DNA of 14,789 bases from Candidatus Margulisiibacteriota bacterium. GTDB taxonomy: Bacteria > Margulisbacteria > WOR-1 > O2-12-FULL-45-9. Shown here one piece after another: positions 2 through 14,430 of this stretch. The stretch spans positions 1 to 14,789 of the forward strand of contig JBDRHP010000072.1 of NCBI GenBank assembly GCA_043816785.1. The letters are read 5' to 3'. Position 1 is the stretch's first letter. Every line of letters begins with the position of its first letter. A program made the translations under genes and the position numbers. The notes under the pieces were generated by a model that did not search any database, was not told where the DNA came from, and saw only the letters and a program-made list of their open reading frames with translations.

Positions 2-745
2 ATCTTAAATATTACTGATAATTTGGCGAATGCCAAGACAGTTGGCTTTAAGAAAGGCCGGGCGGAAATGGAGAGCCTCTTCTATATTGAGAAAAGCTTC
101 AAGGATATGTTGTATGAGGCAATGTCAGGATCAGATACCCCGCCGGTTACTGTGGAGTACGGTACTGGGGTTAGAGTTGCCTCAACCCCTCGCGATTTCT
201 CCCAGGGCGGAATTGAAACGACCAATAATCCTCTAGATATAGCTGTTAAGGGCAACGGTTTTCTTATTTTTCAAATGCCGGACGGTACGGCGGCTTATGG
301 CCGGGCCGGCAACCTGCATCTTGATAATGATGGTAACCTGGTTGATCCCAATGGCCACAAACTTGATCCTGGGATCGTTTTTCCTGATGGGACTACCTCA
401 GTGGTTATTCAGCAGGATGGGATAATCCAGGCGGCAATTAACAATGAAACGACATTTACCGAGGTTGGTCAGATTAATTTGGCGCGTTTCACCAATAATG
501 GCGGCCTAAAGAGCATTGGCCAAAACCTCCTGCAGGCTACGGAGTCCTCCGGTGACCCCTACATTGGGGTCCCTGGCGAAGATGGTTTCGGGTCCATTAA
601 TCAGTTTGCTTTGGAGCAATCTAACGTTGATGTCATTACCGAAATGATGCGCATGGTCATGGTTCAGCGGGTTTTTGATACAGTAACCAAGGCTGTGCAG
701 TCATATGAAGGCATGCTCACCAGTATAGATAGAATGAAACAATAA
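2..745 (+). CDS. flgG: Flagellar distal rod protein FlgG (5'-truncated by window edge)
   Basis: Frame is open from base 2 (ILNITDNLANAKTVGFKK, the rod/hook N-terminal NLAN-T-GFK motif). Also has YGTGVRV, NPLDIAVKGNGF and C-terminal LEQSNVDVITEM. Directly upstream of flgA-flgH-flgI. Confidence 0.85.
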   Translation: MLNITDNLANAKTVGFKKGRAEMESLFYIEKSFKDMLYEAMSGSDTPPVTVEYGTGVRVASTPRDFSQGGIETTNNPLDIAVKGNGFLIFQMPDGTAAYGRAGNLHLDNDGNLVDPNGHKLDPGIVFPDGTTSVVIQQDGIIQAAINNETTFTEVGQINLARFTNNGGLKSIGQNLLQATESSGDPYIGVPGEDGFGSINQFALEQSNVDVITEMMRMVMVQRVFDTVTKAVQSYEGMLTSIDRMKQ

Positions 746-1485
746 TGAAAATCAGAAAATTAGTATTAAATAGATTTTGGCTCTGTTGTCTGTTGGTCCT
801 GTTCTCTTCAGCTACTGCCTTTGCTTTGAAAGATCCCGAAGCAAAGCTTGCCAAAGTCATTGAGGATCATGTTGTTGCCGCCCATCCAAATTGGGCTGAA
901 CTTGATATCAGGATAACTTTTAAATTTGCCGATAAGACATTCAATGATCTGCGCAAGCTGAGTGAAAAAGCAAGCTTTACGGTTGTTGACGTTTATCAGG
1001 ACTTTCGGCCTGTTGGCAATGTGATTTTTCCGATCCAGATCAGCGATGAAGAGGTTAGCCGCAAGGTCTTTGTCCGGGCGCAGGTCGAGGTTTTTAAACC
1101 AGTAGTAGTTGTAAACAGGCTGATCAAGCGCGGTGAAACTATTGCTGAAGGGGATCTTGCGCTTGTGGCGCGAGATATTGCTATGCTGCCAGATAGTTAT
1201 TATGAGGATAAGGTTATGGTCATTGATACAGAGGCCAAGACGGCTATCCCTAAGAACAGCACGATCTTTAGATGGATGGTCAAGGAGATCCCGGTGGTAC
1301 GTCGAGGTGAAGAATTAACCATAAATATTAAAGGTGCTAATTTCCTGGTTAAAGCCCAGGGGATCGCTTTAATGGATGGCTATCTTGGAAAAAATGTGAA
1401 AGTTCGAAAAAAAGGTGTCAAGGACCCGAAAAAAATCCTGGAAGGCTTGCTGATTTCTTCCAAAGAAGTTGAGGTGGAGCTGTAA
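745..1485 (+). CDS. flgA: Flagellar P-ring assembly chaperone FlgA
   Basis: Signal peptide (..ATAFA-LK), SAF-like segment VVVVNRLIKRGETIAEGDL, and C-terminal VVRRGEELTI..GIALMDGYLGKNVKVR. Lies between flgG and flgH with TAATG coupling on both sides. Confidence 0.85.
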   Translation: MKIRKLVLNRFWLCCLLVLFSSATAFALKDPEAKLAKVIEDHVVAAHPNWAELDIRITFKFADKTFNDLRKLSEKASFTVVDVYQDFRPVGNVIFPIQISDEEVSRKVFVRAQVEVFKPVVVVNRLIKRGETIAEGDLALVARDIAMLPDSYYEDKVMVIDTEAKTAIPKNSTIFRWMVKEIPVVRRGEELTINIKGANFLVKAQGIALMDGYLGKNVKVRKKGVKDPKKILEGLLISSKEVEVEL

Positions 1486-2087
1486 TGACCAGACAAATTA
1501 GTTTTGGATTTTGCTTTTTGATTTTTGTCTTTGCCCTGGTTTTGCCATCATTAGCTGATGCGATCTGGAATGACAAGGAAAGCGCCTCACCATACAGTAC
1601 GGAAAGAGCTTACAAAACAGGTGATATCATTAATATTATTATTTTAGAAAGTACTACAGCGCAGAACCGCGCTGGCACCAAGACTGATATTAAGGATGAC
1701 CTGAGTGCTAAATTTACTCATACCCTTCAGCAGTTGGCGCCGGTGATCGGCACCAATAACCAGGCTGCTGGCCAGGCAGCAAATAAATATTCGGGGTCAG
1801 GCCAAACCTCGCGCGTCAGCAATGTTGAAGCGCGGATCGCTGCTTGGGTTACCGATGTTTTACCAAATGGCAACCTGATGATCAAGGGCAGGCACAAGGT
1901 CCAGGTTAATGACGAGATCCAGGAAATAAGCATTACCGGCAGTGTTCGGGCTAAAGACATCAGCGGGGCAAACACGGTTTTTTCATATCAGGTTGCTGAC
2001 GCGGAACTTATGGTCAAGGGGACTGGGGTGGTTGCTGAGTCTGAATCTCCGGGATGGTTTACCAGGATATTAAACTGGTTGTTTTAG
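1485..2087 (+). CDS. flgH: Flagellar L-ring protein FlgH (no lipobox)
   Basis: Motifs RAYKTGDIINIIILES, VTDVLPNGNLMIKGRH, ITGSVRAKDISGANTVFSYQVADA and C-terminal PGWFTRILNWLF. Confidence 0.92.
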   Translation: MTRQISFGFCFLIFVFALVLPSLADAIWNDKESASPYSTERAYKTGDIINIIILESTTAQNRAGTKTDIKDDLSAKFTHTLQQLAPVIGTNNQAAGQAANKYSGSGQTSRVSNVEARIAAWVTDVLPNGNLMIKGRHKVQVNDEIQEISITGSVRAKDISGANTVFSYQVADAELMVKGTGVVAESESPGWFTRILNWLF

Positions 2088-2096
2088 GAGGATAAA

Positions 2097-3194
2097 GTGG
2101 TGCGACTTATTGCAATATTTGCTGTGCTCTGTGTTCTGAGTTCTGTGGCCCTTGCGGTCTCTCCAACTGTCAGGATCAAGGATATCGCCCATGTTCTGGA
2201 AGCCCGCGATAATCAATTAATGGGTTTTGGTTTAGTGGTCGGCTTGCGTAATAGCGGGGACAGAAGCAGCACAGGTTTTACCCAGCAGGCCTTGACTAAT
2301 CTTTTGTCGCGTATGGGGGTAGTGCCTCAATCCGTAGATTTTCGCTCTCGCAATGTGGCGGCAGTCATGGTCACAGCGACTTTGCCCCCATTTATCAAGC
2401 CGGGCCAAAAACTAGATATTACCGTCTCTTCGGTTGGTGACGCAACTTCTTTGCAGGGAGGGACCTTATTGGTCACCCCTCTGCACGGGGTTGATGACGA
2501 AGTCTACGCAGTTGCCCAGGGCAGCCTGCTGGTTGGTTTGGCGTCCGGGACGCCATCTGTTCCCTATATCAAGCAGCGGCAGACAACGGTCGGCAGAATA
2601 CCGGGAGGCGCGCTGGTTGAAAAGGAAGTGCCTGTTTCAATCGGTAATAAAGGTGTGGTGACGATTGTGCTGGATCAGCCGGATTTTACAACGGCAAACC
2701 GGGTTTCGGAGAGTATTCGTCGAGCAGGAATAGATGCCGAGGCAATGGATGCGGCAACCGTTACTGTTTCTCCTGGTACGGATATTAACCTGGTGAGGCT
2801 AGTTTCTCGAGTTGAGAATTTGACAATTGTGCCTGATGTGGTGGCTAAGATCGTTGTTAATGAGCGAACGGGCACGATCGTTATAGGTGAGAGTGTAAAA
2901 ATCTCTCCAGTGGCAGTTTCCTATGCCGGCATAGATGTTATTATCGGTGATGTGGCGCTATTCTCAGAGGGGACGGCGGGAGATTCCAGCCAGGACGATG
3001 CCCGTTATCGCGCCCGTTCTATGGCCACGCTTAAACGAACTGAAGGTAAGCTTAGTCTTGTTTCTGGCGGGGCGACCCTGTCCGGCCTGGTCAGGGCCCT
3101 TAATTCTATCGGGGCTTCACCGCAGGACCTGATCGCCATACTTCAGGCAATGAAGAAATCTGGCGCGATCAACGCGGAGTTAGAGGTGATCTAA
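2097..3194 (+). CDS. flgI: Flagellar P-ring protein FlgI
   Basis: RIKDIA..RDNQLMGFGLVVGL, NVAAVMVTATLPPF, GDATSLQGGTLL, IVVNERTGTIVIG, DLIAILQAMKKSGAINAELEVI. GTG start with an AGGAGG Shine-Dalgarno. Confidence 0.96.
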   Translation: MVRLIAIFAVLCVLSSVALAVSPTVRIKDIAHVLEARDNQLMGFGLVVGLRNSGDRSSTGFTQQALTNLLSRMGVVPQSVDFRSRNVAAVMVTATLPPFIKPGQKLDITVSSVGDATSLQGGTLLVTPLHGVDDEVYAVAQGSLLVGLASGTPSVPYIKQRQTTVGRIPGGALVEKEVPVSIGNKGVVTIVLDQPDFTTANRVSESIRRAGIDAEAMDAATVTVSPGTDINLVRLVSRVENLTIVPDVVAKIVVNERTGTIVIGESVKISPVAVSYAGIDVIIGDVALFSEGTAGDSSQDDARYRARSMATLKRTEGKLSLVSGGATLSGLVRALNSIGASPQDLIAILQAMKKSGAINAELEVI

Positions 3195-3469
3195 TGATCG
3201 ACTCAATTCAGGCTTATCAAAGCGGGCCAAAGGATATGCTGCAACGGGCCATACCGGCGATAAGCTATGCTCAGCAGCAGCAGATCAAGACTGAGTTCCT
3301 GGCGATCTTTTACAAGGAACTGCTTAAGCAGGCTTTTAAACCGCCTAAATTGGGCTTGAGCGAAGATGATATTTCTTTTAGCAGCACCTTTGGGGCGGAC
3401 ATGCTGGTTGATCAGTTTGCTCTGCAGCTGGCGCAAAGTAATGCTTTTAAGGATGCCTTGATAGAATGA
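3194..3469 (+). CDS. flgJ: Short FlgJ-like rod-binding protein (no muramidase domain)
   Basis: Directly after flgI. TEFLAIFYKELLKQA and DMLVDQFALQLAQS resemble the FlgJ N-terminal FEA.F...MLK and M.D...A..L motifs. Only 91 aa. Confidence 0.65.
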   Translation: MIDSIQAYQSGPKDMLQRAIPAISYAQQQQIKTEFLAIFYKELLKQAFKPPKLGLSEDDISFSSTFGADMLVDQFALQLAQSNAFKDALIE

Positions 3470-4200
3470 CCAATAGTAAAATAAAATCAGTTAAGAAAAA
3501 GAAGAAAGCTACCCCTAAATCTCTGGAGCAGTATATGCCGCTCGTGCACTCGATCGCGGCCATGATATCCGGCAGGGGTTTGCCGCCGAATATTCTTTAC
3601 GATGATCTAGTCTCTGACGGGACAATTGGCTTGATGAAAGCCTGGGAAAATTTTGATCCGGATCGGGGGGTCAAGTTCGAAACGTATGCCTCTTATCGGG
3701 TGCGGGGGGAAATGTTGGATGGGTTAAAAAATTACAACCCAGTGCCTTACCGCGTTCAGGTAAAGGTGCGTGATCTGGCAAAAAAGGGCGTTAGTTCGGT
3801 CGTGGACCGCAAAGAGGCCAAAGAGGATGAGCTGCTGGAAAAGAAGGAGTTAAGCGCGGATGAGTTTAAGCAAGCTGTGAAGAGGATCAAAAAGATCGTT
3901 TCAGCTTCTGCTTTGATGTATCTTTTGTCTATTGAAGAAATGGCCGTGGTGGGGGTTGAGGCGCCAGTGCCAGGAGAAACAACCCCGGCGGCAGAACTGG
4001 AATTCGACGAATTAAAAGGACGCATCCGCAACACGGTGTTGGACCTGCCGCCGCTGCAAAAAAAGGTTGTTGAAATGTTTTTTAATCAGGGGATAAATCA
4101 GAAGACCATCGCTAAAAAACTGACATTATCACGGCCCAAAGTCTGCCGCTTGTTAGCTAAAGCGGTAAAAACTATTCAGGTAAAGCTTAAACATGGTTAG
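3466..4200 (+). CDS. fliA: FliA/WhiG-family (sigma28-like) RNA polymerase sigma factor, divergent
   Basis: Region 2: YMPLVHSIA..LPPNILYDDLVSDGTIGLMKAWENFDPDRGVKFETYASYRVRGEMLD. Region 4 HTH: LPPLQKKVVEMFF..INQKTIAKKLTLSRPKVCRLLAKAV. Confidence 0.75.
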   Translation: MTNSKIKSVKKKKKATPKSLEQYMPLVHSIAAMISGRGLPPNILYDDLVSDGTIGLMKAWENFDPDRGVKFETYASYRVRGEMLDGLKNYNPVPYRVQVKVRDLAKKGVSSVVDRKEAKEDELLEKKELSADEFKQAVKRIKKIVSASALMYLLSIEEMAVVGVEAPVPGETTPAAELEFDELKGRIRNTVLDLPPLQKKVVEMFFNQGINQKTIAKKLTLSRPKVCRLLAKAVKTIQVKLKHG

Positions 4201-4498
4201 ACCAATGGAATTATTCGATACGCAATTTAGGAATATTGAGCGGGGGATGGAAATTGCCACCCGCCGCCAGGAAGTAATTACCCATAACATTGCCAACGCG
4301 AAAACGCCAGGCTTTGAACCGTTAGCTTTTGATGAAGAATTAATGGCGGCGGTAAAAAGGCTGGACCGCAAAGAAGTTGTGCTGGAAGAAGAGCTGTCAG
4401 CTTTGACCGAGAATTCAGTCAAATATTCATCATACGTTAAACTGCTTACTTCAAAAATTAATATGCTGAGAACAATTGCTACGCAGGGGAGGCGGTAA
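4193..4498 (+). CDS. flgB: Flagellar proximal rod protein FlgB, shortened (start may be the ATG at 4205)
   Basis: RQEVITHNIANAKTPGF motif and C-terminal helix ENSVKYSSYVKLLTSKINMLRTI. Directly upstream of flgC. Confidence 0.88.
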   Translation: MVRPMELFDTQFRNIERGMEIATRRQEVITHNIANAKTPGFEPLAFDEELMAAVKRLDRKEVVLEEELSALTENSVKYSSYVKLLTSKINMLRTIATQGRR

Positions 4499-4504
4499 TA
4501 ATCC

Positions 4505-4939
4505 ATGGGGCTTGATCAGGCTTTAAATATCAGTGTTACCGGATTGCAGGCGCAAAGAGTGACCATGGAATTAATCGCTTCCAATCTGGCGAATATTAAC
4601 ACTACTAGAACTGTTTTTGGTGGCCCATACCGCCGCCGTGTTGCTGTGCTGGCTGAAACTCCAGTGAAGTCATTTGCTGATGAATTATCTCTGGCCGAGA
4701 CCCGGATGCACGGGGGCGGAGTTGATGTGGTTGAGGTGGTAGAAGACTCAACTCCCTTTCAGAAAGCCTATAAACCAGGCCATCCTGATGCTGATAGACA
4801 AGGTTATGTTTCCCTGCCAAATGTTAATTATTCCGAGGAGATGGTCGATCTGATGTATACTTCCCGGATGTATGAGGCCAATATTACGGCTTTTAACGCG
4901 ACTAAGAAAATGATGCAAGATACTTTGCAACTACCCTAA
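4505..4939 (+). CDS. flgC: Flagellar proximal rod protein FlgC
   Basis: ISVTGLQAQRVTMELIASNLANINTTR..GGPYRRR, YKPGHPDAD..GYVSLPNVN..EEMVDL..SRMYEAN. Confidence 0.96.
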   Translation: MGLDQALNISVTGLQAQRVTMELIASNLANINTTRTVFGGPYRRRVAVLAETPVKSFADELSLAETRMHGGGVDVVEVVEDSTPFQKAYKPGHPDADRQGYVSLPNVNYSEEMVDLMYTSRMYEANITAFNATKKMMQDTLQLP

Positions 4940-4951
4940 GGAGTTGTTTAA

Positions 4952-5320
4952 ATGGCGGAACAGATAAGTCCGATCAATAATGCTGAGATGAGGCTGGCCC
5001 AGATCCTGGGTGATGATTATTTGTCGCAGGCGTCAGAGGTGGCTGCCGGGCCGGCAGAAGCAGCCAAACCCCTTGGACAGCCCACGCTTTCCGGAAATCC
5101 ATTTGAAGATGTTCTGGCCAAAGCAATGCATGCTATTGATGGGGTTAGTCGCTCAGAAATGCACGCTAATCAATTGATTGAAAAATATATGCGTGGCGAA
5201 GTGGAAATGCACGAAGTGATGATTGCCCAGTCTAAGATTAGCATTATGATGCAGCTGGCTGTCTCGACTATCACTTCAGCAGTCACCAGCTTTAAAGAGA
5301 TCACGCAGATGCAGATCTAA
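4952..5320 (+). CDS. fliE: Hook-basal body protein FliE
   Basis: FEDVLAKAMHAI..GEVEMHEVMIAQSK..FKEITQMQI, in flgC-fliE-fliF order. Confidence 0.92.
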   Translation: MAEQISPINNAEMRLAQILGDDYLSQASEVAAGPAEAAKPLGQPTLSGNPFEDVLAKAMHAIDGVSRSEMHANQLIEKYMRGEVEMHEVMIAQSKISIMMQLAVSTITSAVTSFKEITQMQI

Positions 5321-5323
5321 TTA

Positions 5324-5343
5324 CCTGCCTGACGGCAGGCAGG
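5324..5343. repeat. Short palindromic element CCTGCCTG-ACGG-CAGGCAGG (family B)
   Basis: Perfect 8-bp inverted repeat with a 4-nt loop in the fliE-fliF gap. A near-identical element lies at 14453-14473. Confidence 0.85.
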
Positions 5344-5353
5344 AGGAGGAGTA

Positions 5354-6916
5354 ATGGCGGAACCAGCTTCAGCCGCCCTGGCAGCAGGCGGATTTGATAT
5401 AAGAAGATTATTGCTTTTGGCCGGAGTGGGCATTGTTATTTCTATTGCGGTCCTATTCTTTTTCTTTCGCGGCTGCGCGCCGTCCGTCCGCGGAACAAGC
5501 GGCTATACTGTTATTTATTCCAACCTAAGCCTCAAGGACGCGGCTAATGCGATTGGCCGTCTTAAAGAGCTGGCGATACCCTATGAAATCAAAGATGAAG
5601 GCGGGTCCATAGCCGTGCCAAAACAACGCGCTGATGAAGCTAGATTGGGGCTGGCGGAAAAGAACCTGCCGGCTGGCGGTGTCGTGGGTTGGGAGATCTT
5701 TGATGAGGCCAGGCTTGGGGCGACTGATTTTGACCGGCGGATCCAATTAATTAGGGCGATTTCTGGTGAGCTTTCCCGGACCATCAGGCGGATCCAGGCG
5801 GTTGAAGACGCCCGGGTACAAATTGTTATGCCAGAGACCCGGCTGTTTGCTGAAACAGCGGCTCCAGTGACCGCTTCTGTAATGCTGCGCTTGCGTCCCG
5901 GCGCCACCTTAGACATGGCAAAGGTCAATGGGATTATTCATCTGGTGGCCAGCAGCGTGGAAAATTTACAGACAGAGAATGTAACGGTGGTTGATAATAC
6001 TGGTCGAATTCTGACTGCCAAAGCGGCCGGGCAGCCAGTTCCGGAAATACCCGTTGCGGTTGGACAACCGTTGCCAAAACCAACGACTGAAGTCCCGCCG
6101 GTTGAAGTTGTTGTAAAAAAAGAAATTGAAGTTGTAAGAAAAATAGTTGAACCAGTTGTTGAAGTGAAGGAGAAAGAAAAAGAAGTCAAAGTGGAAAAGC
6201 CAAAGGAAGAACCTAAGGAGGTTGCAGAAGTCAAACTCCCCTTGACTTCAGAGGAGAAAATTCTGCTCATAGTGCAGGCCAAAAAAGAGCTGGAGCGTAA
6301 TTTGGCCGGCAAGGCCCAGGAGATACTAAATCGTTTTTATCCTCCTAATAGCGCGATTGTTAAAGTGAACGTTGAAATCCTCAATGGTAATAAGGGCAGC
6401 AAATTTGTAGCAGAGCAATTAAAGGTCAAAAAAACGACCGCGGTAATTTTGATTGACAACCGGGTAGATCTTACCAAGGAGTTAAAACAGGCAACTTATC
6501 AAGCCATAGCTGCGGCCATTGGCTACAACCGCAAACGCGGCGACCGTATTGTTATGCAAAAGGTGCCGTTCCATTTGGCTACCCCTCCGCCTGAGATAAT
6601 TAAGGGGGAAGTGGAAAAAGTGCTGCCGACTAAGCCAAAAATGAAATTACCTGTTTTGCCAGCCAGCTGGCTGCGCAACATCGCCTGGCTAATGGGAATT
6701 GTTGCCGCGGCATTTGTTGTTATCTTGCTTATCGGGCGCTTTCGGCCAAAACCAAAGACAACTGCCAAGGTCGTGGCTAGACCACAGAGCCCGCCATCTA
6801 AACCAACACCGCCTTTGAGCAGGGAAAAGACCAATGCCCTGGAGAACATTAAATCGGCGGTGGAAAGGGATCCTGAGCGTATTGCCCAGCTGCTCAGGAG
6901 CTGGTTAACGGAATAA
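5354..6916 (+). CDS. fliF: MS-ring protein FliF, atypical (PEVK-rich insertion, beta-collar apparently absent)
   Basis: TM1; GWEIFDEARLGATDFDRRIQLIRAISGELSRTI; ARVQIVMPE; TASVML; IIHLVASSVENLQTENVTVVDNTG; AIGYNRKRGDRIVMQKVPF; TM2; C-terminal DPERIAQLLRSWL. Confidence 0.93.
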   Translation: MAEPASAALAAGGFDIRRLLLLAGVGIVISIAVLFFFFRGCAPSVRGTSGYTVIYSNLSLKDAANAIGRLKELAIPYEIKDEGGSIAVPKQRADEARLGLAEKNLPAGGVVGWEIFDEARLGATDFDRRIQLIRAISGELSRTIRRIQAVEDARVQIVMPETRLFAETAAPVTASVMLRLRPGATLDMAKVNGIIHLVASSVENLQTENVTVVDNTGRILTAKAAGQPVPEIPVAVGQPLPKPTTEVPPVEVVVKKEIEVVRKIVEPVVEVKEKEKEVKVEKPKEEPKEVAEVKLPLTSEEKILLIVQAKKELERNLAGKAQEILNRFYPPNSAIVKVNVEILNGNKGSKFVAEQLKVKKTTAVILIDNRVDLTKELKQATYQAIAAAIGYNRKRGDRIVMQKVPFHLATPPPEIIKGEVEKVLPTKPKMKLPVLPASWLRNIAWLMGIVAAAFVVILLIGRFRPKPKTTAKVVARPQSPPSKPTPPLSREKTNALENIKSAVERDPERIAQLLRSWLTE

Positions 6917-7389
6917 TGCCGTTAACGGGAAGGGAGAAAGCAACAATATTTTTGTCTATTTTAGGCGCTGAGACGTCAGCCAGGGTCTTACGTTATTTGC
7001 CTGATGAGTTGGCTGATCTGATCGCTTCAGGAATTAATCATTTGCCATCGCCTTCTCAGGACGCGCTCTCAGAAGTTTTAGGAGAATTTAAAGGTTTTGT
7101 GGCTTTACCCGAATCCCGGGAGGCAGTTCCTGCGCCGCAGATCGCGCAGAAACCTAAGTCAGTAATACCCAAGCGCCAGTTTGGCTTTTTACTATACGAA
7201 CGTCCGCAAATGTCAGCCTTTCTTTTGTCGCAATTGCCCGGTGATCAGCGCGAGGAAGCTTTGAACTCCTTATCTAGGGAGAAAGGGATTGTTATGGGGC
7301 TCTTAGCTAATTTGAAAAATAATATCTTAACAGAAAAACTGTCCGCCAAACTTAAGGAACAATTCAAGGGAAAGTTGTTTTCAGAATAA
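6916..7389 (+). CDS. fliG: Miniature FliG (N domain plus reduced middle domain, no C-terminal torque domain)
   Basis: LTGREKATIFLSILGAETSARVLRYL..VLGEF matches FliG-N, and YERPQMSAFLLSQL matches the EHPQ motif. Coupled to fliF (TAATG). The stop is 6 nt before fliH. Confidence 0.85.
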   Translation: MPLTGREKATIFLSILGAETSARVLRYLPDELADLIASGINHLPSPSQDALSEVLGEFKGFVALPESREAVPAPQIAQKPKSVIPKRQFGFLLYERPQMSAFLLSQLPGDQREEALNSLSREKGIVMGLLANLKNNILTEKLSAKLKEQFKGKLFSE

Positions 7390-7395
7390 TCAAAA

Positions 7396-8094
7396 ATGGG
7401 ACTGATCAAAAGAGATCAAATTGAAGAAAAAGGCACGGTTATCATTGAGAAGAAACCGCCGCTGATCCATGCTAAGCCAAAACCAAAACCAATTGCTCCA
7501 ACTGTTCCCAGTAAACCCTTGACCACTGATGATCTGCCCAAAGCCAAGAGCGAGGCCCAGCGGATCGTTGATCAAGCTATGAATGAAGCCGAAGCAGTAA
7601 AGGAAGAGGCCAGGGAGGCCGGTCGAGAAGAAGGCATGGCTGAAGCCTCGGCGCGGATCGAGGAAGCGCTAGTAACTCTTGACGAAGCTGTTAAAGAGCG
7701 CAGGGTAATCATTAAAGATGCTGAGCAGGAAATTTTAAGGCTGGCCATCCGGGTTGCCGAGCAGATTATCAGGTCTGAGGTTTCTTTGCATCGTGATGTT
7801 TGTTTGAATATTGTTGCTGAGGCGATTTCCCGTGTCTCAGACCGGGAACAGATTATCGTCAGGGTAAATCGTGAAGACGCGGAACATCTTAAACGTTATA
7901 AGGATCGTCTGGCGGGCATGCTTGATGGGGTAAAGAGCTTTTCGATTTTGGAGGACGCCAATGTGGAACCCGGTGGCTGTGTTATCGAGACCAATTTAGG
8001 CTTTATTGATGCGAAAATATCCACCAAGCTGAAATCTATTGAAACAGCCTTCAAAAAAGTCTCTTCCGAAGAAGAAGATCGATTGCCTCAATGA
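7396..8094 (+). CDS. fliH: Export ATPase regulator FliH/SctL family
   Basis: [13 protein letters not shown] glycine-repeat helix, [43 protein letters not shown]. Confidence 0.92.
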
Positions 8095-9404
8095 AGATGA
8101 ATCTTGATAAATATCACAAAGCAGTTGAACGCGCTGACCTGGTAAAAGTAATTGGTAAAGTTGTCCAGGTGGTTGGTTTGATCATTGAGGCTCAGGTAGG
8201 CGGGGTTTCGGTCGGTGACCTGTGCTCCATCCGTCTGGAAAAAAGCAATCATGATTCTTTTGCTGAGGTAGTTGGCTTTCGCGAAAAGCGGGTTTTATTG
8301 ATGCCGCTTGGCTCAACAGCTGGGATCTCTCCTGGTGCGCAAGTAGTTGCGGCAGGCAAACCCTTGATGGTGCGAGTTGGCGAGGATCTTTTAGGCCGCG
8401 TGCTTAGCGGCCTGGGCGAGCCTGTGGACGGTAAAGGGCCGATCATTGGTGAAGCTGATTATCCCCTCGATGCCGACCCGCCTGATCCGGTCAAACGTCC
8501 CAGGATAACCGAAGTTATGAAAGTTGGTATCCGGGCGATTGACGGCATGCTGACCGTTGGCAGAGGCCAGCGGATAGGCATTTTTGCCGGGTCCGGTGTC
8601 GGTAAATCCACCCTGATGGGCATGATCGCCAGAAATGCTGAGGCTGATATTAACGTTATTTCCCTGGTGGGTGAGCGTGGTCGGGAAGTCCGGGATTTTA
8701 TTGAGGAGTCACTTGGCGAAGAAGGCATGAAAAAATCAGTTGTGGTCTGTGCCACCTCTGATCAACCGCCGCTGATCCGATTGAAAGCCGCTTTTGTGGC
8801 CACGGCCATTGCTGAATATTTTCGCAACCAGGGTAAAAAAATAATCCTGATGATGGACTCGACCACTCGCTTTGCCATGGCCCAGCGAGAAATAGGCCTG
8901 GCTGCTGGCGAGCCGCCGACGACCAAAGGGTATACGCCATCGGTTTTTGCCCTGCTGCCTCGTTTGATGGAGCGCTCCGGCACCTCGGTAACTGGTTCGA
9001 TCACTGCCTTTTACACGATCCTGGTTGAAGGCGATGACATGAATGAGCCGATTGCTGACCATTCTCGCTCAATTCTTGACGGACATATCGTGTTATCGCG
9101 CGATCTGGCTGCCCGCAACCATTATCCGGCCATTGATGTGCCGCACAGCGTTTCCCGATTGATGACCAATTTGGTTTCAGATGAACATAAGCAGGCTGCC
9201 GGGAAATTAAGGGAAGTGCTGGCGCGCTACACCGAGGCAGAAGATTTGATCAATATAGGAGCTTATGTTAAAGGCAGCAATCCCAAGATCGATTTCGCGC
9301 TTTCCAAGATCGAACAGGTCAATGCTTTTTTAAAGCAAGGCACCTTTGATCAGGTTAAATATGAAGAGACGGTTAAGCGCTTACTTAGCGTCTTTGCTAA
9401 ATAA
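8091..9404 (+). CDS. fliI: Type III export ATPase FliI/SctN
   Basis: Walker [25 protein letters not shown], Walker [47 protein letters not shown]. Confidence 0.97.
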
Positions 9405-9418
9405 TGGGGGCATAAAAA

Positions 9419-9886
9419 GTGGCTAAGCAGAAACCCGGTAAAAGATTTAAATATGATCTCCAGTCTGTTTTAAAAGTCAGAGCAATAAAAGAGAAAAAAG
9501 AACAGGAAATATTTGCTGAGAAGCAGCGTGATTTTCTAACTGAAAAGCAAAAAGAGGAAGCTATCGAGGAAAACAAAAGGAACAAAGAAGACGACCTGCG
9601 CGGCGTCTTTAAAAAAGGCCCGATCACTGATTTTTCTAAGGTCTTGTCCAGAAAGGCTCATCTTGAAGTATTGAAAGATAATCTGGACAAGCAAGTTGAA
9701 AAGGTCATTGAATCCAGCAAGCTGCTCGAAGAGCAGCGGGCGCGCCTCATCTCATCCATGAAAGATAAAAAGATCATGGAAAAGCACAAAGAGAAAAAGC
9801 TAAAAGAATACGATAAAATGATGCTAGATTTAGAGACAAAATTTCTGGATGAAATTGCGACCTCGCGTTTTAAACACAAGCAGTAA
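9419..9886 (+). CDS. fliJ: Export ATPase stalk FliJ
   Basis: RFKYDLQSVLKVR N-terminal motif, charged coiled coil, DKKIMEKHKEK and ETKFLDEIA. Follows fliI, GTG start. Confidence 0.9.
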   Translation: MAKQKPGKRFKYDLQSVLKVRAIKEKKEQEIFAEKQRDFLTEKQKEEAIEENKRNKEDDLRGVFKKGPITDFSKVLSRKAHLEVLKDNLDKQVEKVIESSKLLEEQRARLISSMKDKKIMEKHKEKKLKEYDKMMLDLETKFLDEIATSRFKHKQ

Positions 9887-9888
9887 GC

Positions 9889-10080
9889 TTAGAGAGCCTT
9901 TTTGACTTTACCTGCCTTGAGGCATTTAGTGCAGACATATTCCTTGGTTTTTTTCCCGTTAATCAGTATGTTCATTTTTTGCAAATTGGGCCTAAATAAG
10001 CGTTTGGTGGAATTCATGCTGTGCGAGACCGTATTGCCGCTCCTGGCTTTTTTGCCGCATATAAAACATTTTCTGCTCAT
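9889..10080 (-). CDS. rpmB: 50S ribosomal protein L28 (four-Cys, zinc-binding type)
   Basis: [39 protein letters not shown]. Confidence 0.97.
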
Positions 10081-10084
10081 GATG

Positions 10085-10113
10085 TTTATAGTATATCATA
10101 AATATGTTAAAAT
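10085..10113 (+). promoter_or_regulatory. Putative extended -10 promoter for the recG operon
   Basis: TG-T-TAAAAT at 10105-10113 with TTTATA (10085-10090) 17 nt upstream. Interleaved with the divergent rpmB promoter. Confidence 0.5.
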
Positions 10114-10118
10114 GGCAA
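10090..10118 (-). promoter_or_regulatory. Putative sigma70 promoter for rpmB
   Basis: The minus strand reads TTGCCA (10118-10113), a 17-nt spacer, then TATACT (10095-10090) preceded by TGn. The -10 ends 9 nt before the rpmB ATG. Confidence 0.7.
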
Positions 10119-10212
10119 CCTCACCCCCCGCTAGCGTTTAAGCCGCCTCCCCCCTCTCCATCTTCGATGGAGAGGGGGGAGGGAAAGCAATAACGTAAGC
10201 AGGGGGGTGAGG
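10119..10212. repeat. Long nested inverted repeat (family C) upstream of recG
   Basis: Inner perfect 17-bp stem CCTCCCCCCTCTCCATC (10146-10162) / GATGGAGAGGGGGGAGG (10166-10182). Outer 11-bp stem CCTCACCCCCC (10119-10129) / GGGGGGTGAGG (10202-10212). Confidence 0.9.
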
Positions 10213-10217
10213 ATTAA

Positions 10218-12257
10218 ATGATAATGACAGTAAATCTGCAGACCCCAGTCCAATATCTTAAGGGCGTTGGCCCAAGAGCGGCCATGCTGCTGAAAAAACT
10301 CGGCGTATTGACCGTTGAGGACCTGATCTATTTTTTCCCCCGTGATTATGATGATCGAACCCAAGTTGCTTTGATTTCTGAACTGACCTCTGCCGATTAT
10401 CAGGTTATCAGAGGAGAAATTATAGATATTAGGCAGCAGCTTACCCGCAATCATTTCTCAGTTTTAAAGCTTAAAATTGCTGACCACTCAGGTTCTATCC
10501 AGGCGGTTTCGTTCAATCAGCCATATCTGGCGAGACTATTTCGCCCTGGAATGAAACTGATCATTTCCGGCAAGCTCGAATTCTCAAGCTTTGAAGGCAT
10601 TAATCAATTTATTGTGCGGGATTATGAGATAGATACAGGCGTTAACCCAAAGATCGTGCCGCTTTACCCATTAACTAAAGGCCTTTTTCCCAAGAAGTTA
10701 CGGAATATTGCCAAAACAGCTCTGGATAATTGTTTGGCCGACATTGAGGAATGGCTACCGGAAGAGTTGCGCTTAAAGCACAAATTGTGCGGTCTGTGCG
10801 AAGCGATAGAGCATCTGCATTTCCCGGCCAAGCTTTCCCAAACAGTGCCGGCCCGCAGGAGACTGGCTTTTGATGATTTTTTTATATTTCAGCTTGGCTT
10901 GGGTTTGCGCCAGAGCAGGATAAAAGCTGAGGCAGGCATTTCATACAATATTGACCAAAGAATGCTGAATGATCTCCAGGAGGCCTTGCCTTTTAAGCTT
11001 ACTTCGGCACAGGAAAGAGTCTTAAAGGAAATACAGGCTGATATGCAAAGCAATCATCCCATGAACCGCTTGCTGCAGGGTGATGTCGGGTCTGGAAAGA
11101 CGATTATCGCCGCTCTATCTTCATTATTAGCCATTCACAATGGCTATCAAGTAGCTTTGATGGCGCCGACTGAGATCCTGGCGCAGCAGCATTATGATAA
11201 GATCATCAGACTACCAGGATATCAGAAGATCAGAGTTGGGTTATTAACTGGCGCGACCCGGAAGAATAAACAGGTGGAAAAGCTAGACAAACACGACTTG
11301 ATAATTGGCACGCATGCTTTGATCCAAGATAAGGTTAACTTTGAAAAATTGGGATTGGTCATCATTGATGAACAGCACCGTTTTGGCGTGCAGCAGCGGG
11401 CGCAATTGGTAAAAAAAGGGGTCAACCCTGATTTTTTGGTCATGACTGCCACGCCGATTCCCAGGTCACTGGCCCTGACACTCTATGGCGATCTTGACCG
11501 CTCGGTGATTGATGAGTTGCCTCCAGGCAGGACGCCGGTCAAGACCTACTTTGTGCCTGAAGATAAACGGCGCGGCGCTTACGAATTTATGCGTCAGCAA
11601 ATAAAGGCTGGCCGCCAGGTTTTTATTGTCTGTCCGCTGGTTGAGGAATCGTCAAAGGTTGACCTAAAGGCGGCTCTGGATGAGGCCGAGCGCTTGCAAC
11701 GTGATATTTTTCCGGAATTGACGGTTGGCCTGCTGCATGGCAGGCTAAAGAGTGAGGCCAAGGATCAGGTCATGAAGCAATTTAAAGATGGCCAGATCCA
11801 GATACTGGTCTCCACAACAGTGATTGAAGTGGGGATTGATATACCGAATGCCACTGTTATGGTGGTGGAGCACGCCGAAAGGTTTGGTTTGTCGCAGTTG
11901 CATCAGTTGCGCGGCCGGATAGGCCGCGGGGCAAAGCAATCACACTGCTTTTTGCTGGCAGACGCTAAATCCCAAGAGTCCCGGGCCAGGATCAAGGCAA
12001 TGATCGATTCAACAGACGGTTTTCAGCTGGCTGAAGTTGACCTGAAATTGCGCGGTCCAGGCGATTTCTATGGCATCAGGCAAAGCGGTTTGCCAAACTT
12101 TCGCGTTGCTGATATAATTATGGACGAGAAAATACTGCGGGAAGCGCGAAAGGCCGCATTTGATTTGATCGAGGAAGATGTGAACAGTGCGCGTAATATC
12201 TGGCAAAGCCAAGGGCAAAAAGTTAAAGGCGCCGTCGCAGGCGCGACCCTTAACTGA
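10218..12257 (+). CDS. recG: ATP-dependent DNA helicase RecG
   Basis: LKGVGP, DLIYFFPRDYDDR, PMNRLLQGDVGSGKT, MAPTEILAQQH, IIDEQHRFGV, MTATPIPRSLA, AERFGLSQLHQLRGRIGRG, DLKLRGPGDFYGIRQSG. Confidence 0.98.
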   Translation: MIMTVNLQTPVQYLKGVGPRAAMLLKKLGVLTVEDLIYFFPRDYDDRTQVALISELTSADYQVIRGEIIDIRQQLTRNHFSVLKLKIADHSGSIQAVSFNQPYLARLFRPGMKLIISGKLEFSSFEGINQFIVRDYEIDTGVNPKIVPLYPLTKGLFPKKLRNIAKTALDNCLADIEEWLPEELRLKHKLCGLCEAIEHLHFPAKLSQTVPARRRLAFDDFFIFQLGLGLRQSRIKAEAGISYNIDQRMLNDLQEALPFKLTSAQERVLKEIQADMQSNHPMNRLLQGDVGSGKTIIAALSSLLAIHNGYQVALMAPTEILAQQHYDKIIRLPGYQKIRVGLLTGATRKNKQVEKLDKHDLIIGTHALIQDKVNFEKLGLVIIDEQHRFGVQQRAQLVKKGVNPDFLVMTATPIPRSLALTLYGDLDRSVIDELPPGRTPVKTYFVPEDKRRGAYEFMRQQIKAGRQVFIVCPLVEESSKVDLKAALDEAERLQRDIFPELTVGLLHGRLKSEAKDQVMKQFKDGQIQILVSTTVIEVGIDIPNATVMVVEHAERFGLSQLHQLRGRIGRGAKQSHCFLLADAKSQESRARIKAMIDSTDGFQLAEVDLKLRGPGDFYGIRQSGLPNFRVADIIMDEKILREARKAAFDLIEEDVNSARNIWQSQGQKVKGAVAGATLN

Positions 12258-12786
12258 CCGGGCAAAAGAAGCCCTTTTTAACATCTTGAGAAATAAAGTT
12301 GTTGATAGCGCTTTTCTGGATCTCTTTGCCGGATCCGGAGCTGTTGGCATAGAGGCTTTATCCAGGGGCGCTGAAAAAGCTGTTTTTGTTGATCTTGATC
12401 GAAAAGCTGTCAGCATAATCAGGGAGAATCTTAAAAATACAGGATTGGCTGAGCAGGCTGATGTTTATGCGAATGACGCTGTTAGCGCTTTGAAGGTTTT
12501 GGGAAGTAAGCTTTCCAGGTTTGATCTCATTTTCCTGGGAGCGCCGTATGATAGTCCTGCTCTTGAAAGTACCTTGGAAAAGATTGGAGAGTTGGATCTA
12601 TTAAAGCGCTCCGGCGTGGTCATTGCAGAACACAGGAAACAACACAAGCTCTTGAATGAATATGGGCAGCTGAAGATATTCAGGGAAGAAAAATACGGAG
12701 AAACTGTTTTTGGCTTTTATGAAATGGGGAAACCTGCGACTGAACGTCGCGGTTTCCAAATTGAGGAAAAGCGAATTCGAGATTAA
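12187..12786 (+). CDS. rsmD: 16S rRNA m2G966 methyltransferase RsmD
   Basis: MRVISGKAKGKKL..RPLTDRAKEALFNIL, FLDLFAGSGAVGIEALSRGA, YGETVFGFY. GTG start lies inside recG, with a GAGG upstream. Confidence 0.95.
   Translation: MRVISGKAKGKKLKAPSQARPLTDRAKEALFNILRNKVVDSAFLDLFAGSGAVGIEALSRGAEKAVFVDLDRKAVSIIRENLKNTGLAEQADVYANDAVSALKVLGSKLSRFDLIFLGAPYDSPALESTLEKIGELDLLKRSGVVIAEHRKQHKLLNEYGQLKIFREEKYGETVFGFYEMGKPATERRGFQIEEKRIRD
12728..12757. repeat. REP-like palindrome (family A) inside the rsmD 3' end
   Basis: GGAAACC-T-GCGAC-TGAAC-GTCGC-GGTTTCC: same bulged-T hairpin and TRAAN loop as the units at 14433-14602. Confidence 0.8.
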
Positions 12787-12787
12787 C

Positions 12788-13258
12788 ATGAAAGTAGCGA
12801 TTTATCCAGGTAGTTTTGATCCGGTTACCAATGGGCACGTTGACGTGATCGAGCGCGCGGCAAAGCTTTTTGACAAAGTGATCGTGGCGGTCATCCGCAA
12901 TCCGGAAAAGAAGCCCAGGTTTTCTTTAGAAGAGCGGGTTGAGATGCTGCAAAGATCATTGGTTAATGACCCAAGTGTTGATGTGGAAAGCTTTGATGGG
13001 TTATTGGTCGATTACGCTAAAAAGAAAAAGGCCAATATTATCGTTAGGGGCCTGCGCGCTGTCTCAGATTTTGACTATGAATTCCAGATGGCGCTGACTA
13101 ACCGTAAAATGGCGCAGGAGATAGAGACCCTTTTCTTTATGACTGATTATAAATATTCGTATCTCTCTTCCAGTTTTGTCAAACAGATCGCTCTTTTTAA
13201 GGGGGATGTCAGCGAACTTGTCCCGGCCCCCGTGGCTGCGAAATTAAAAGGAATTTAA
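12788..13258 (+). CDS. coaD: Pantetheine-phosphate adenylyltransferase CoaD
   Basis: MKVAIYPGSFDPVTNGHVDVIERA and IVRGLRAVSDFDYEFQMALTNR. The homologous start is the ATG at 12788, not the longer ORF from 12710. Confidence 0.97.
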   Translation: MKVAIYPGSFDPVTNGHVDVIERAAKLFDKVIVAVIRNPEKKPRFSLEERVEMLQRSLVNDPSVDVESFDGLLVDYAKKKKANIIVRGLRAVSDFDYEFQMALTNRKMAQEIETLFFMTDYKYSYLSSSFVKQIALFKGDVSELVPAPVAAKLKGI

Positions 13259-13270
13259 GGAGGAGTAATT

Positions 13271-13714
13271 ATGGAAATCCTGGGCTTGTTGGATACGCTT
13301 GAGTCGATGATCCTTGATGGCAGCAAAATTCCCTTGACTAAAAAGGTTATTATAAATGAGGACCGGATCCTTGGTGTCATAGATAAAATGCGGTTGGTGA
13401 TCCAAGGCGGTGGAGGCTTTGCCAAGGATGCGATTGTTTCAAAGCAAGGGGACGTGGGACGTGGGACGGAAAAATCAGTTGCCCAGCCGGCAAACCTTGA
13501 TATCTTAGAGGGTAAGTCACAAGAGGAAGCCAAGGCAGTTGAAGTCTTGCAGCAGGCATATCAAATGGCCAAAGAGATCAGGGAAGGCGCTGATGGTTAC
13601 GCTGATGAGGTTCTGGCTAATCTAGAGGCTACTTCAACGAGGATTTTACGTACTATTAAGGCAGGGCGTCAAAGATTAGAAAAGACAGCTGTCCCAGCCA
13701 GGGAGCAGCAGTGA
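13271..13714 (+). CDS. Coiled-coil DivIVA-like protein (cyanobacterial Cdv3 / clostridial coaD-linked type)
   Basis: [36 protein letters not shown] and [28 protein letters not shown]. Directly after coaD, with a strong AGGAGG. Confidence 0.65.
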
Positions 13715-14430
13715 AGCGAGCGGACGGCAGAAGTATCTCAGAAATCAGACCGGTGAAGATCACCAGAAACTACCTCAAATATCCTACGGGTTCTGTTTTG
13801 ATAGAGATGGGCGACACCAAGGTTATTTGTACTGCTTCAGTGGCTGAGACCGTGCCTCATCACAAGAAGAATTCTGGCCAGGGCTGGGTCACAGCAGAGT
13901 ATGCCATGCTGCCGGCTGCCACTGCTGAGCGCTCAAACCGGGAGCATATGCATGGCAGGACACGCGGCCGCACCCAGGAGATCCAACGCTTAATTGGCCG
14001 CTCTTTGCGCGCGGTAGTTGATCTGGAAAAACTAGGTGAGAGAACGATATATATTGATACTGACGTGATCCAGGCGGACGGGGGAACGAGAACCGCTGCC
14101 ATTACCGGGTCATTTGTGGCGCTTAAAGATGCCGTAAATAGCCTGCTTAATGAGGGATTGATAAAAAAGCAGTTCATTACCGAGCATTTAGCCGCTGTTA
14201 GTGTGGGGATAGTGGCGGGGACTGCCATGGTTGACCTGCCTTACAGCGAGGATGTTCAAGCTGAGGTTGATATGAATGTGGTGATGACAGAATCAGGCAA
14301 GTTCATCGAAGTCCAGGGAACGGCTGAAGGCATCCCTTTTTCCAAAGAGCAGCTAAACCAGCTGCTTGATCTGGCAGCTGGCGGGATCAAGGAGCTGATT
14401 AAAAAGCAAAAAGAGGTGTTGGGGAAATGA
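13711..14430 (+). CDS. rph: Ribonuclease PH
   Basis: [72 protein letters not shown]. Confidence 0.98.

Follow-up and report, generated by a model that had tools for sequence, protein, structure and literature searches.

The step from flagellum to delivery machine is known from one event, the origin of the injectisome, and from degraded flagellar remnants. Here we compare such systems with an operon of flagellum-type genes (flgG to fliJ) in a window of 14,789 nucleotides (nt), the whole stretch of DNA analyzed, which is the entire contig C72 (JBDRHP010000072.1) of one WOR-1 (Saganbacteria) genome (G000; 1.53 Mb, 86.75% complete) from Margulisbacteria, the phylum sister to Cyanobacteria. Like the machine encoded here, the injectisome is flagellum-derived, keeps the ATPase and export gate, and has no stator, torque domain or beta-collar. 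However, it uses a secretin, SctD and SctF, whereas this machine has FlgH and FlgI in its operon with secretins elsewhere in the genome, and its ATPase falls outside the SctN injectisome clade. In Campylobacter, non-flagellar proteins co-expressed under sigma-28 are secreted through the flagellar gate; that system involves a motile flagellum and few substrates, in contrast to the dedicated machine and ~60 candidate substrates considered here.

According to part of the report on Buchnera aphidicola (PMC8109811), its basal bodies keep the rod, rings and export gate, have lost fliC, motA and motB, and were proposed to function in type III export; the machine described here similarly retains gate and rings and has neither flagellin nor stator. 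The same portion of that report describes the reduction of a sole flagellum, with a 38-kDa FliG kept and fliI and hook genes often shed, whereas we found a duplicate kept across a phylum, with a half-size FliG, a collarless FliF, two sigma factors of its own and, in 13 genomes, a true flagellum alongside. The intermediate type III secretion system of Myxococcales lacks FlgBCDEK, FliEG, FlgH and MotAB, as described in part of PMC3459982; unlike it, the present machine keeps FlgBCFG, FliE, the N-terminal and middle domains of FliG, FlgH and FlgI. Non-flagellated Lysobacter enzymogenes, which lacks flagellin, exports toxic proteins via flagellar type III genes (part of PMC7688988), a recent remnant of one genus in contrast to a phylum-wide paralog with remodeled ring proteins. 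We found no published description of this machine under Saganbacteria or Margulisbacteria flagella or type III secretion, among sources represented mostly by titles and abstract beginnings, supplements excluded. Motil, secretion, pili and chemota are all unmatched in the main text of PMC6349859, as is flagell in the accessible part of a report of an intracellular Margulisbacterium in Trichoplax (PMC6784892); the supplements of both may list these genes.

Our data indicate, with high confidence, that this machine is non-rotating in most WOR-1 and is a maintained, specialized paralog of the flagellum. On balance, judging from sequence, we favor the operon as one of two loci of a flagellum paralog without stator, torque domain or filament, which would act as a static type III exporter of co-regulated, arginine-tagged enzymes through the rod and the P and L rings. 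Its 14 genes all lie on the + strand (2-9886) with intergenic gaps of -8 to +33 nt, and Pfam assigns 13 of the 14, the exception being an open reading frame (ORF) of 91 amino acids (aa). A preliminary description of the window had counted 14 intact, tightly packed genes; the packing is borne out, but flgG lacks its 5' end at the contig start, leaving 13 complete genes:

2..745, +, flgG, distal rod (Pfam LlgE_F_G_D1 and Flg_bbr_C); 5' end cut by contig edge, 264-270 aa in relatives
745..1485, +, flgA, P-ring chaperone (Pfam ChapFlgA)
1485..2087, +, flgH, L ring (Pfam FlgH)
2097..3194, +, flgI, P ring (Pfam FlgI, 374 bits)
3194..3469, +, flgJ-like rod cap, N-terminal domain only, 91 aa (family profile matches the ORF at the flgJ position in a flagellar cluster, E 2e-6)
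3466..4200, +, sigma factor 1, FliA/WhiG-like and diverged (best NCBIfam match FliA_WhiG, 133 bits, below the cut-off of 189.6; alignment)
4193..4498, +, flgB, proximal rod, ~40 central residues absent (Pfam, alignment)
4505..4939, +, flgC, proximal rod (Pfam)
4952..5320, +, fliE (Pfam)
5354..6916, +, fliF, MS ring lacking the beta-collar and carrying a disordered Pro/Glu/Lys linker (Pfam, alignment, model)
6916..7389, +, fliG, N-terminal and middle domains, no C-terminal torque domain (Pfam, alignment, model)
7396..8094, +, fliH (Pfam, NCBIfam)
8091..9404, +, fliI, export ATPase (TIGR03497, FliI clade 2, 671 bits, cut-off 629.8; trees)
9419..9886, +, fliJ (Pfam, NCBIfam)

The 91-aa flgJ-like ORF matched neither Pfam nor NCBIfam, and the FliI protein also exceeds the cut-off of the SctN model TIGR02546 (618 vs. 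604.75 bits). No second flagellar copy of the 14 genes was found in G000, where the other matches were only RpoD, ATP synthase subunits and Rho.

The losses proposed from the letters alone (the FliG C domain, the FliF beta-collar and the center of FlgB) were confirmed by Pfam, alignment and structural modeling, and the expectation that relatives would share the truncations held across the phylum. FliG binds FliM through its middle domain and contacts MotA through its C domain. The operon FliG (157 aa) comprises FliG_N and FliG_M with no FliG_C in Pfam, can be aligned with solved FliG over the N and middle domains, and terminates with the helix following the middle domain. Its EHPQ motif reads ERPQ (EQPQ in flagellar relatives), and the linker helix between the domains is partly exchanged for a flexible linker; the model shows two helical domains with a predicted local distance difference test score (pLDDT) of 87.6. 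The torque domain is missing from the operon FliG in 45 paralog copies, which are 149-215 aa long compared to 333-334 aa in five flagellar copies. Since the FliM-binding domain is retained, a C-ring platform likely remains. The FliF model contains ring motifs 1 and 2, a disordered linker (224-293), the core of motif 3 and C-terminal helices, with a 15-residue loop between the first two strands of motif 3 at the beta-collar position; this span measures 41-80 residues in 31 copies vs. 111 in the sole pattern-matched flagellar FliF. A phmmer search of ring motif 3 against PDB gave chance matches only. In FlgB, alignment shows ~40 central residues to be gone. Every named short-FliG homolog among the best 120 of 252 came from Margulisbacteria/WOR-1, a weak test of its range beyond the phylum. 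In one relative, fliF and short fliG form a single 643-aa frame (L032:4633-6561), either a natural fusion or an assembly error.

Locus 1 comprises a FliK-like gene (whose product resembles Bacillota clusters), flhX and flgF, carried on contig C34 in G000, followed by the window genes. Locus 2, around flhA, reads rho-murF-fliK-(flgD)-flgE-fliM-fliN-fliO-fliP-fliQ-fliR-flhB-flhA-(two small ORFs)-sigma 2, and together the two loci supply a full export gate, ATPase, rings and rod. In G000, locus 2 is split across C105, C89, C70 and C86, with flgE and fliM not seen at an assembly gap. The preliminary description had looked for the export gate outside the window, and it is indeed present (C89/C70 in G000); FlhA occurs in 62 of the 65 WOR-1 genomes in our class sample, and scored 762 bits with the FlhA model vs. 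668 with SctV, both below the respective cut-offs. It had also noted that the operon stops at fliJ, where many flagellar clusters continue: the operon does end there, with rpmB-recG directly after, and of the usual continuation fliK, a short flgE, fliM and fliN exist at locus 2; the flgE-fliM interval has none of motA, motB and fliL, and flhA is not followed by flhF or flhG. Locus 2 FlgE is of FlgG-like length (265-295 aa in 21 copies) and lacks the outer domain, whereas flagellar FlgE spans 753-885 aa in three copies. Locus 2 FliM lacks the CheY peptide of LSQxEIDALL type, and flgD is present in locus 2 of G020, G029, G034 and G036 and absent there in G009, G014, G048 and G058. Many locus 2 copies outside WOR-1 carry a conserved 286-421-aa gene between fliP and fliQ (L163:9326, L164:8507, L170:10439, L181:8824) with a signal-like start and, in the one scanned, no Pfam match; others have a ParA/MinD-type ATPase between fliM and fliN.

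The motor and filament were missing in nearly every WOR-1 genome examined. As the preliminary description expected for stators and flagellin, we found no Flagellin, FlgK, FliG_C or MotA in G000 or in the single-contig WOR-1 genomes G048 and G020, and no MotA_ExbB match in G000. Among the 65 WOR-1 genomes, 58 have no MotA/ExbB-family gene; in the other seven, it is ExbB-type beside TonB/ExbD (G010, G061), part of a stand-alone module (G029, G034, G035), or present in G031 and G062. FliG_C is absent from 61; the four that have it carry it in a separate fusion with frames of 495-512 aa, and both of those scanned have the architecture FliF_C-FliG_M-FliG_C and lie next to MotA. FlgK never exceeded its cut-off (0/65); 55 weak matches, one of them window flgC, reflect a common rod-end motif and were rejected. 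Flagellin_N was found in one of the 65, and four near-complete WOR-1 genomes, scanned with a flagellated control alongside, yielded no FliD, FliL or FlgM, one MCP and one CheW. What is shared with a motile flagellum is the MS ring, rod, P/L rings, export gate and ATPase; the stator MotA/MotB, the FliG torque domain and the filament, junction and cap proteins (FliC, FlgK/L, FliD) are not there. The single Flagellin_N match is a 251-aa orphan in G045 (L122:8178-8930), a genome without a flagellum, and has a flagellin N-terminal helix after a signal-peptide-like start.

Conservation extends across the phylum. The order flgF-flgG-flgA-flgH-flgI-flgJ-fliA-flgB-flgC-fliE-fliF-fliG-fliH-fliI-fliJ, usually preceded by the FliK-like gene and flhX, was kept in all loci compared (23 plus a further 20, to contig limits, some being the same genome twice). 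FliP (132 genomes), the FliI family (133) and FlgI (136) occur in most of our sample of 146 Margulisbacteria genomes, compared to only 15 with Flagellin_N. FliP, FliI and FlgI are each present in duplicate in all 13 flagellated genomes (G123-G135). Normal clusters, with long FlgE, motAB and fliL, contain one set, and the other comprises both WOR-1-type loci. Window FliI is 65-71% identical to one copy in these genomes and 58-62% to the other, and the second basal-body locus, compared in eight of the 13, has the window gene order in all eight with a FliG of 174-202 aa. The flagellum of these genomes (L128-L131, L183-L188) has homologous genes in similar order but, unlike the paralog, FliG of 333-334 aa, FlgE of 753-885 aa, motAB, fliL, FlgK/L, flagellin, FliD and FlgM. 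The FliP tree separates the seven flagellar copies from the rest by a 100/100 branch. In an ATPase tree of 32 rows, including plasmid-borne SctN and FliI, a 100/100 SctN injectisome clade excludes all 15 paralog rows, which form one side of a weak branch (87/41); this tree covers one gene, without Chlamydia or Myxococcales sequences. One row of a quick FliI tree (G014_L086) proved to be an ATP synthase subunit and was disregarded.

These data bear on two rival readings. That it is a decaying flagellum, or a normal one whose other genes were lost in binning, we consider extremely improbable: the incompleteness of G000 would fit, as would single-gene breaks in relatives (fliF in L036, flgI in L019, fliH in L029, flgH in L037, flgA and flgG in L160) and the flgI in two pieces, split after profile position 265-269, in five of six family f3 genomes (G016, G017, G019, G020, G021). 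It is refuted by ratios of nonsynonymous to synonymous substitution (dN/dS) of 0.01-0.19 in six same-genus pairs (unsaturated dS only; 0.06-0.11 for recG), by the same truncation in 45 copies, by absences in single-contig genomes and by the intact flagellum that 13 relatives carry alongside, which indicates an old specialized duplicate rather than decay. The earlier idea of an exapted flagellum stands for a non-motor machine, but one that is a duplicate beside a true flagellum and not the remains of a sole one; a static export conduit agrees with the gate, rings and rod kept without motor parts, with the qualifications that a C-ring platform likely remains and that secretion itself we infer. 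It is also very improbable that the basal body still rotates, using a FliF_C-FliG_M-FliG_C fusion with MotA/MotB to move something other than a filament. In G034 and G035, fliK is immediately preceded by such a rotor module, and FliG_C and MotA-family genes are common in non-flagellated genomes outside WOR-1, but the absence of FliG_C from 61 WOR-1 genomes (including G000 and both single-contig genomes) and of MotA/ExbB from 58 excludes rotation for most WOR-1, and the fusion has its own ring motif and so looks like a separate rotor. Stand-alone modules of this kind (L121:3096-6017 in G034, L123:8090-10340 in G029, L125 in G035, L132:9375-12962, L222:4095-8200) consist of the fusion, or a FliF_C gene and full FliG, with MotA and a MotB bearing a LysM or OmpA domain, in genomes without flagellin. 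FliG_C numbers one to four copies in many non-flagellated genomes outside WOR-1, and up to seven in flagellated ones.

Two promoter motifs that we initially recognized in the sequence preceding genes of the machine itself also occur ahead of genes elsewhere in the genome. Promoter A (GCAAGTT-N15-CGATA) lies upstream of both fliK genes and promoter B (TGAAAT-N16-CGATA) upstream of the small ORFs preceding sigma 2, while many WOR-1 loci have a TTGAC-N17-TATAAT promoter upstream of flgF. The sigma-28 consensus has two boxes spaced like TAAA-N15-GCCGATAA; A and B keep this spacing and the CGATA core, with changed -35 boxes (GCAAG and TGAAAT), and both cluster sigma factors match FliA/WhiG best, below cut-off. 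In G000, promoter B occurs 50 times (6-9 in shuffles) and A 30 times (9-19); the canonical sigma-28 form is not enriched there (4 vs. 1-5 in shuffles). Self-trained matrices found 76 B and 26 A sites vs. 0-2, a partly circular comparison. Promoter B has 10-194 copies per genome in all 65 WOR-1 genomes (reversed pattern, 0-3), A has 8-34 per WOR-1 genome (control, 0-5), and B has 0-83 in other lineages. From their positions, our guess is that sigma 1 reads promoter A and sigma 2 promoter B. Promoter B also precedes the housekeeping sigma RpoD (G000:C55:3044-4111), a hint of a life-stage switch. The two small ORFs between flhA and sigma 2 (~126 and ~70 aa; L121:15510-16108, G000:C86:2322-2591), under promoter B, are possibly a chaperone or anti-sigma factor; the h126 ORF ahead of sigma 2 matched only unnamed Atlas clusters, and neither Pfam nor NCBIfam.

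Most proteins encoded behind promoter B have an N-terminus that is Arg-rich, acid-free and not hydrophobic. We compared the first 25 residues of 57 promoter-B genes (at least 120 aa, score at least 15) with those of 1155 other G000 genes. Arginine was enriched (0.130 vs. 0.050, p = 6e-17), as was proline (0.083 vs. 0.036), and Asp+Glu was depleted (0.030 vs. 0.088), with at most one acidic residue in 51 of the 57; the bias declines past residue 20-30. Hydrophobic N-termini were found in two of the 57, compared to 342 of the 1155. Wrong start codons were ruled out as a source of the leader by Shine-Dalgarno sites at the start (38/57 promoter-B vs. 355/792 other genes; a later ATG has one in seven promoter-B genes) and by a composition unlike translated intergenic DNA. 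Tat export was rejected, with a twin-Arg motif in 2/57 and a hydrophobic stretch in 2/57. A leader rule built from the B set flags 21/54 B genes vs. 19/1049 others, the 19 being enriched just downstream of B genes. Housekeeping Rel and Rpe have neither promoter B nor an extension, whereas their promoter-B paralogs have both. In a replicate limited to 24 B genes from other WOR-1 loci and four from non-WOR-1 loci, arginine was again enriched in the 24 (0.108 vs. 0.053, p = 5e-5).

The domain scan covered 80 of 93 promoter-linked ORFs of at least 60 aa (12 lay beyond the retrieved loci and one weak site was excluded). No Pfam match was found for 29 of 63 promoter-B proteins. Domains in the set, mostly beginning at residue 20-100, include five protein kinases, two RelA/SpoT, two GGDEF, a histidine kinase, a receiver, ADP-ribosylglycohydrolase, NUDIX, GNAT, HD, metabolic enzymes and one weak ADP-ribosyltransferase match. 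TPR, fibronectin and Sec-signal proteins were among the 17 scanned behind promoter A, with starts rich in Ser/Gly. Few promoter-driven proteins were matched in the relatives' loci examined. Ankyrin repeats were found in only one of five genomes, giving little sign of eukaryote-type effectors, and a promoter-B protein of 78 aa, needle-like on visual inspection, was rejected, as it occurs in only one of five genomes. A 32-kb run of 14 co-oriented genes (G000:C68:2120-34629), eight with promoter B, encodes two kinases, two PP2C phosphatases, a glycogen-synthase domain, a nucleotidyltransferase and large orphans.

Taken together, these patterns suggest how the machine could work. A sigma-70 promoter would drive the window operon; sigma 1 would then read promoter A (the fliK genes and locus 2), and sigma 2 would read promoter B, activating its own operon and ~60-70 late genes. 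FliE, FlgB/C/F/G and the rod-like FlgE may build a short straight tube across the P and L rings, for which FliK/FlhB would provide the length ruler and the switch, while short FliG could still link FliF to FliM/FliN as an ATPase and sorting platform. The machine probably exports non-structural proteins, and many promoter-B proteins could be its substrates, marked by the 20-30-residue, Arg/Pro-rich, acid-free leader. This link between cargo and machine is drawn because of their common promoter types and the lack of Sec or Tat signals, and we lean toward the leader-bearing promoter-B proteins being cargo. The putative cargo domains (Ser/Thr kinases, PP2C, RelA/SpoT, GGDEF, histidine kinases, metabolic enzymes) would fit a bacterial rather than a eukaryotic target, though that the target is another bacterium is a tentative suggestion. 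With equal caution, we raise the broader possibility of a third type III branch beside flagellum and injectisome: an ancient, phylum-wide flagellum duplicate, with rod and P/L rings as barrel and a two-sigma cascade, injecting dozens of Arg-tagged enzymes (kinases, phosphatases, enzymes of (p)ppGpp and c-di-GMP, metabolic enzymes) into another bacterium, which would make Saganbacteria parasites or predators of bacteria.

Several observations weigh against export of this kind. The usual type III signal is not known to be Arg-rich; acid depletion was not significant in the 24-gene replicate (p = 0.18), and the four genes from non-WOR-1 loci had no leader and neither bias. Promoter B is scarce (0-10 copies) in many machine-bearing non-WOR-1 genomes and also precedes leaderless rpoD and phosphoglucomutase; it may thus define a general life-stage regulon, and co-regulation is indirect evidence. 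Locus 2 lacks flgD in families f1, f2 and f12 and flgE in many non-WOR-1 genomes, a patchiness which suggests that the outer tube varies. No needle (SctF), tip, translocon or SctD ring was found in the two loci or the 80 promoter-driven proteins, no genome-wide family search having been made, and G000 encodes two secretins outside the machine loci (C11 and C44), so other export routes exist. Much of this would also fit a static surface or envelope structure (a contact stub, an adhesion post, or a checkpoint timing the two sigmas) that exports only its own parts, the leaders serving another purpose or route: the missing translocon and needle (in that limited scan), rpoD and central-metabolism genes under promoter B, the secretins, and a machine near-universal in a phylum where promoter B is rare in many lineages. 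We regard this as unlikely, given ~57 genes that have in common a leader of neither Sec nor Tat type and whose promoter type is also found ahead of the locus 2 sigma operon, and given extended paralogs alongside plain housekeeping copies; for the checkpoint version, a classic checkpoint needs an anti-sigma factor, and FlgM is absent in four of four WOR-1 genomes. Less likely again is a type III exporter that delivers to one of the organism's own compartments (the periplasm, a bud, a daughter or a spore-like cell). Cargo including bacterial signaling and metabolic enzymes dependent on ATP, GTP or sugars would suit such a target, a two-sigma cascade also fits development, and FlgF of several non-WOR-1 paralog copies begins with a hydrophobic Sec-like stretch (L203:4337, L211:14825, L216:6378, L220:6239). 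However, the P and L rings, with FlgI kept in 136 of 146 genomes, point to outer-membrane passage, and the scarcity of promoter-driven proteins matched in relatives' loci resembles fast-changing effector sets.

If export by the flagellum paralog is true, it would likely be a type III secretion system with an origin separate from that of the injectisome. In the paralog, a separate and still recognizable case, the torque domain, beta-collar, stator and filament were likewise lost, here from a duplicate that retained the rod and P/L rings; where the parent flagellum is also present, as in some genomes, a single cell allows the steps to be compared. An uncultured phylum thereby gains a testable lifestyle and a candidate substrate list with a compact, assayable leader.

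Among minor observations, G094 has two FlgF-like genes. The remainder of the window (9889-14430) holds ordinary genes (rpmB, recG, rsmD, coaD, a hypothetical gene and rph, named by eye from translations), whose order is conserved in most WOR-1 loci.

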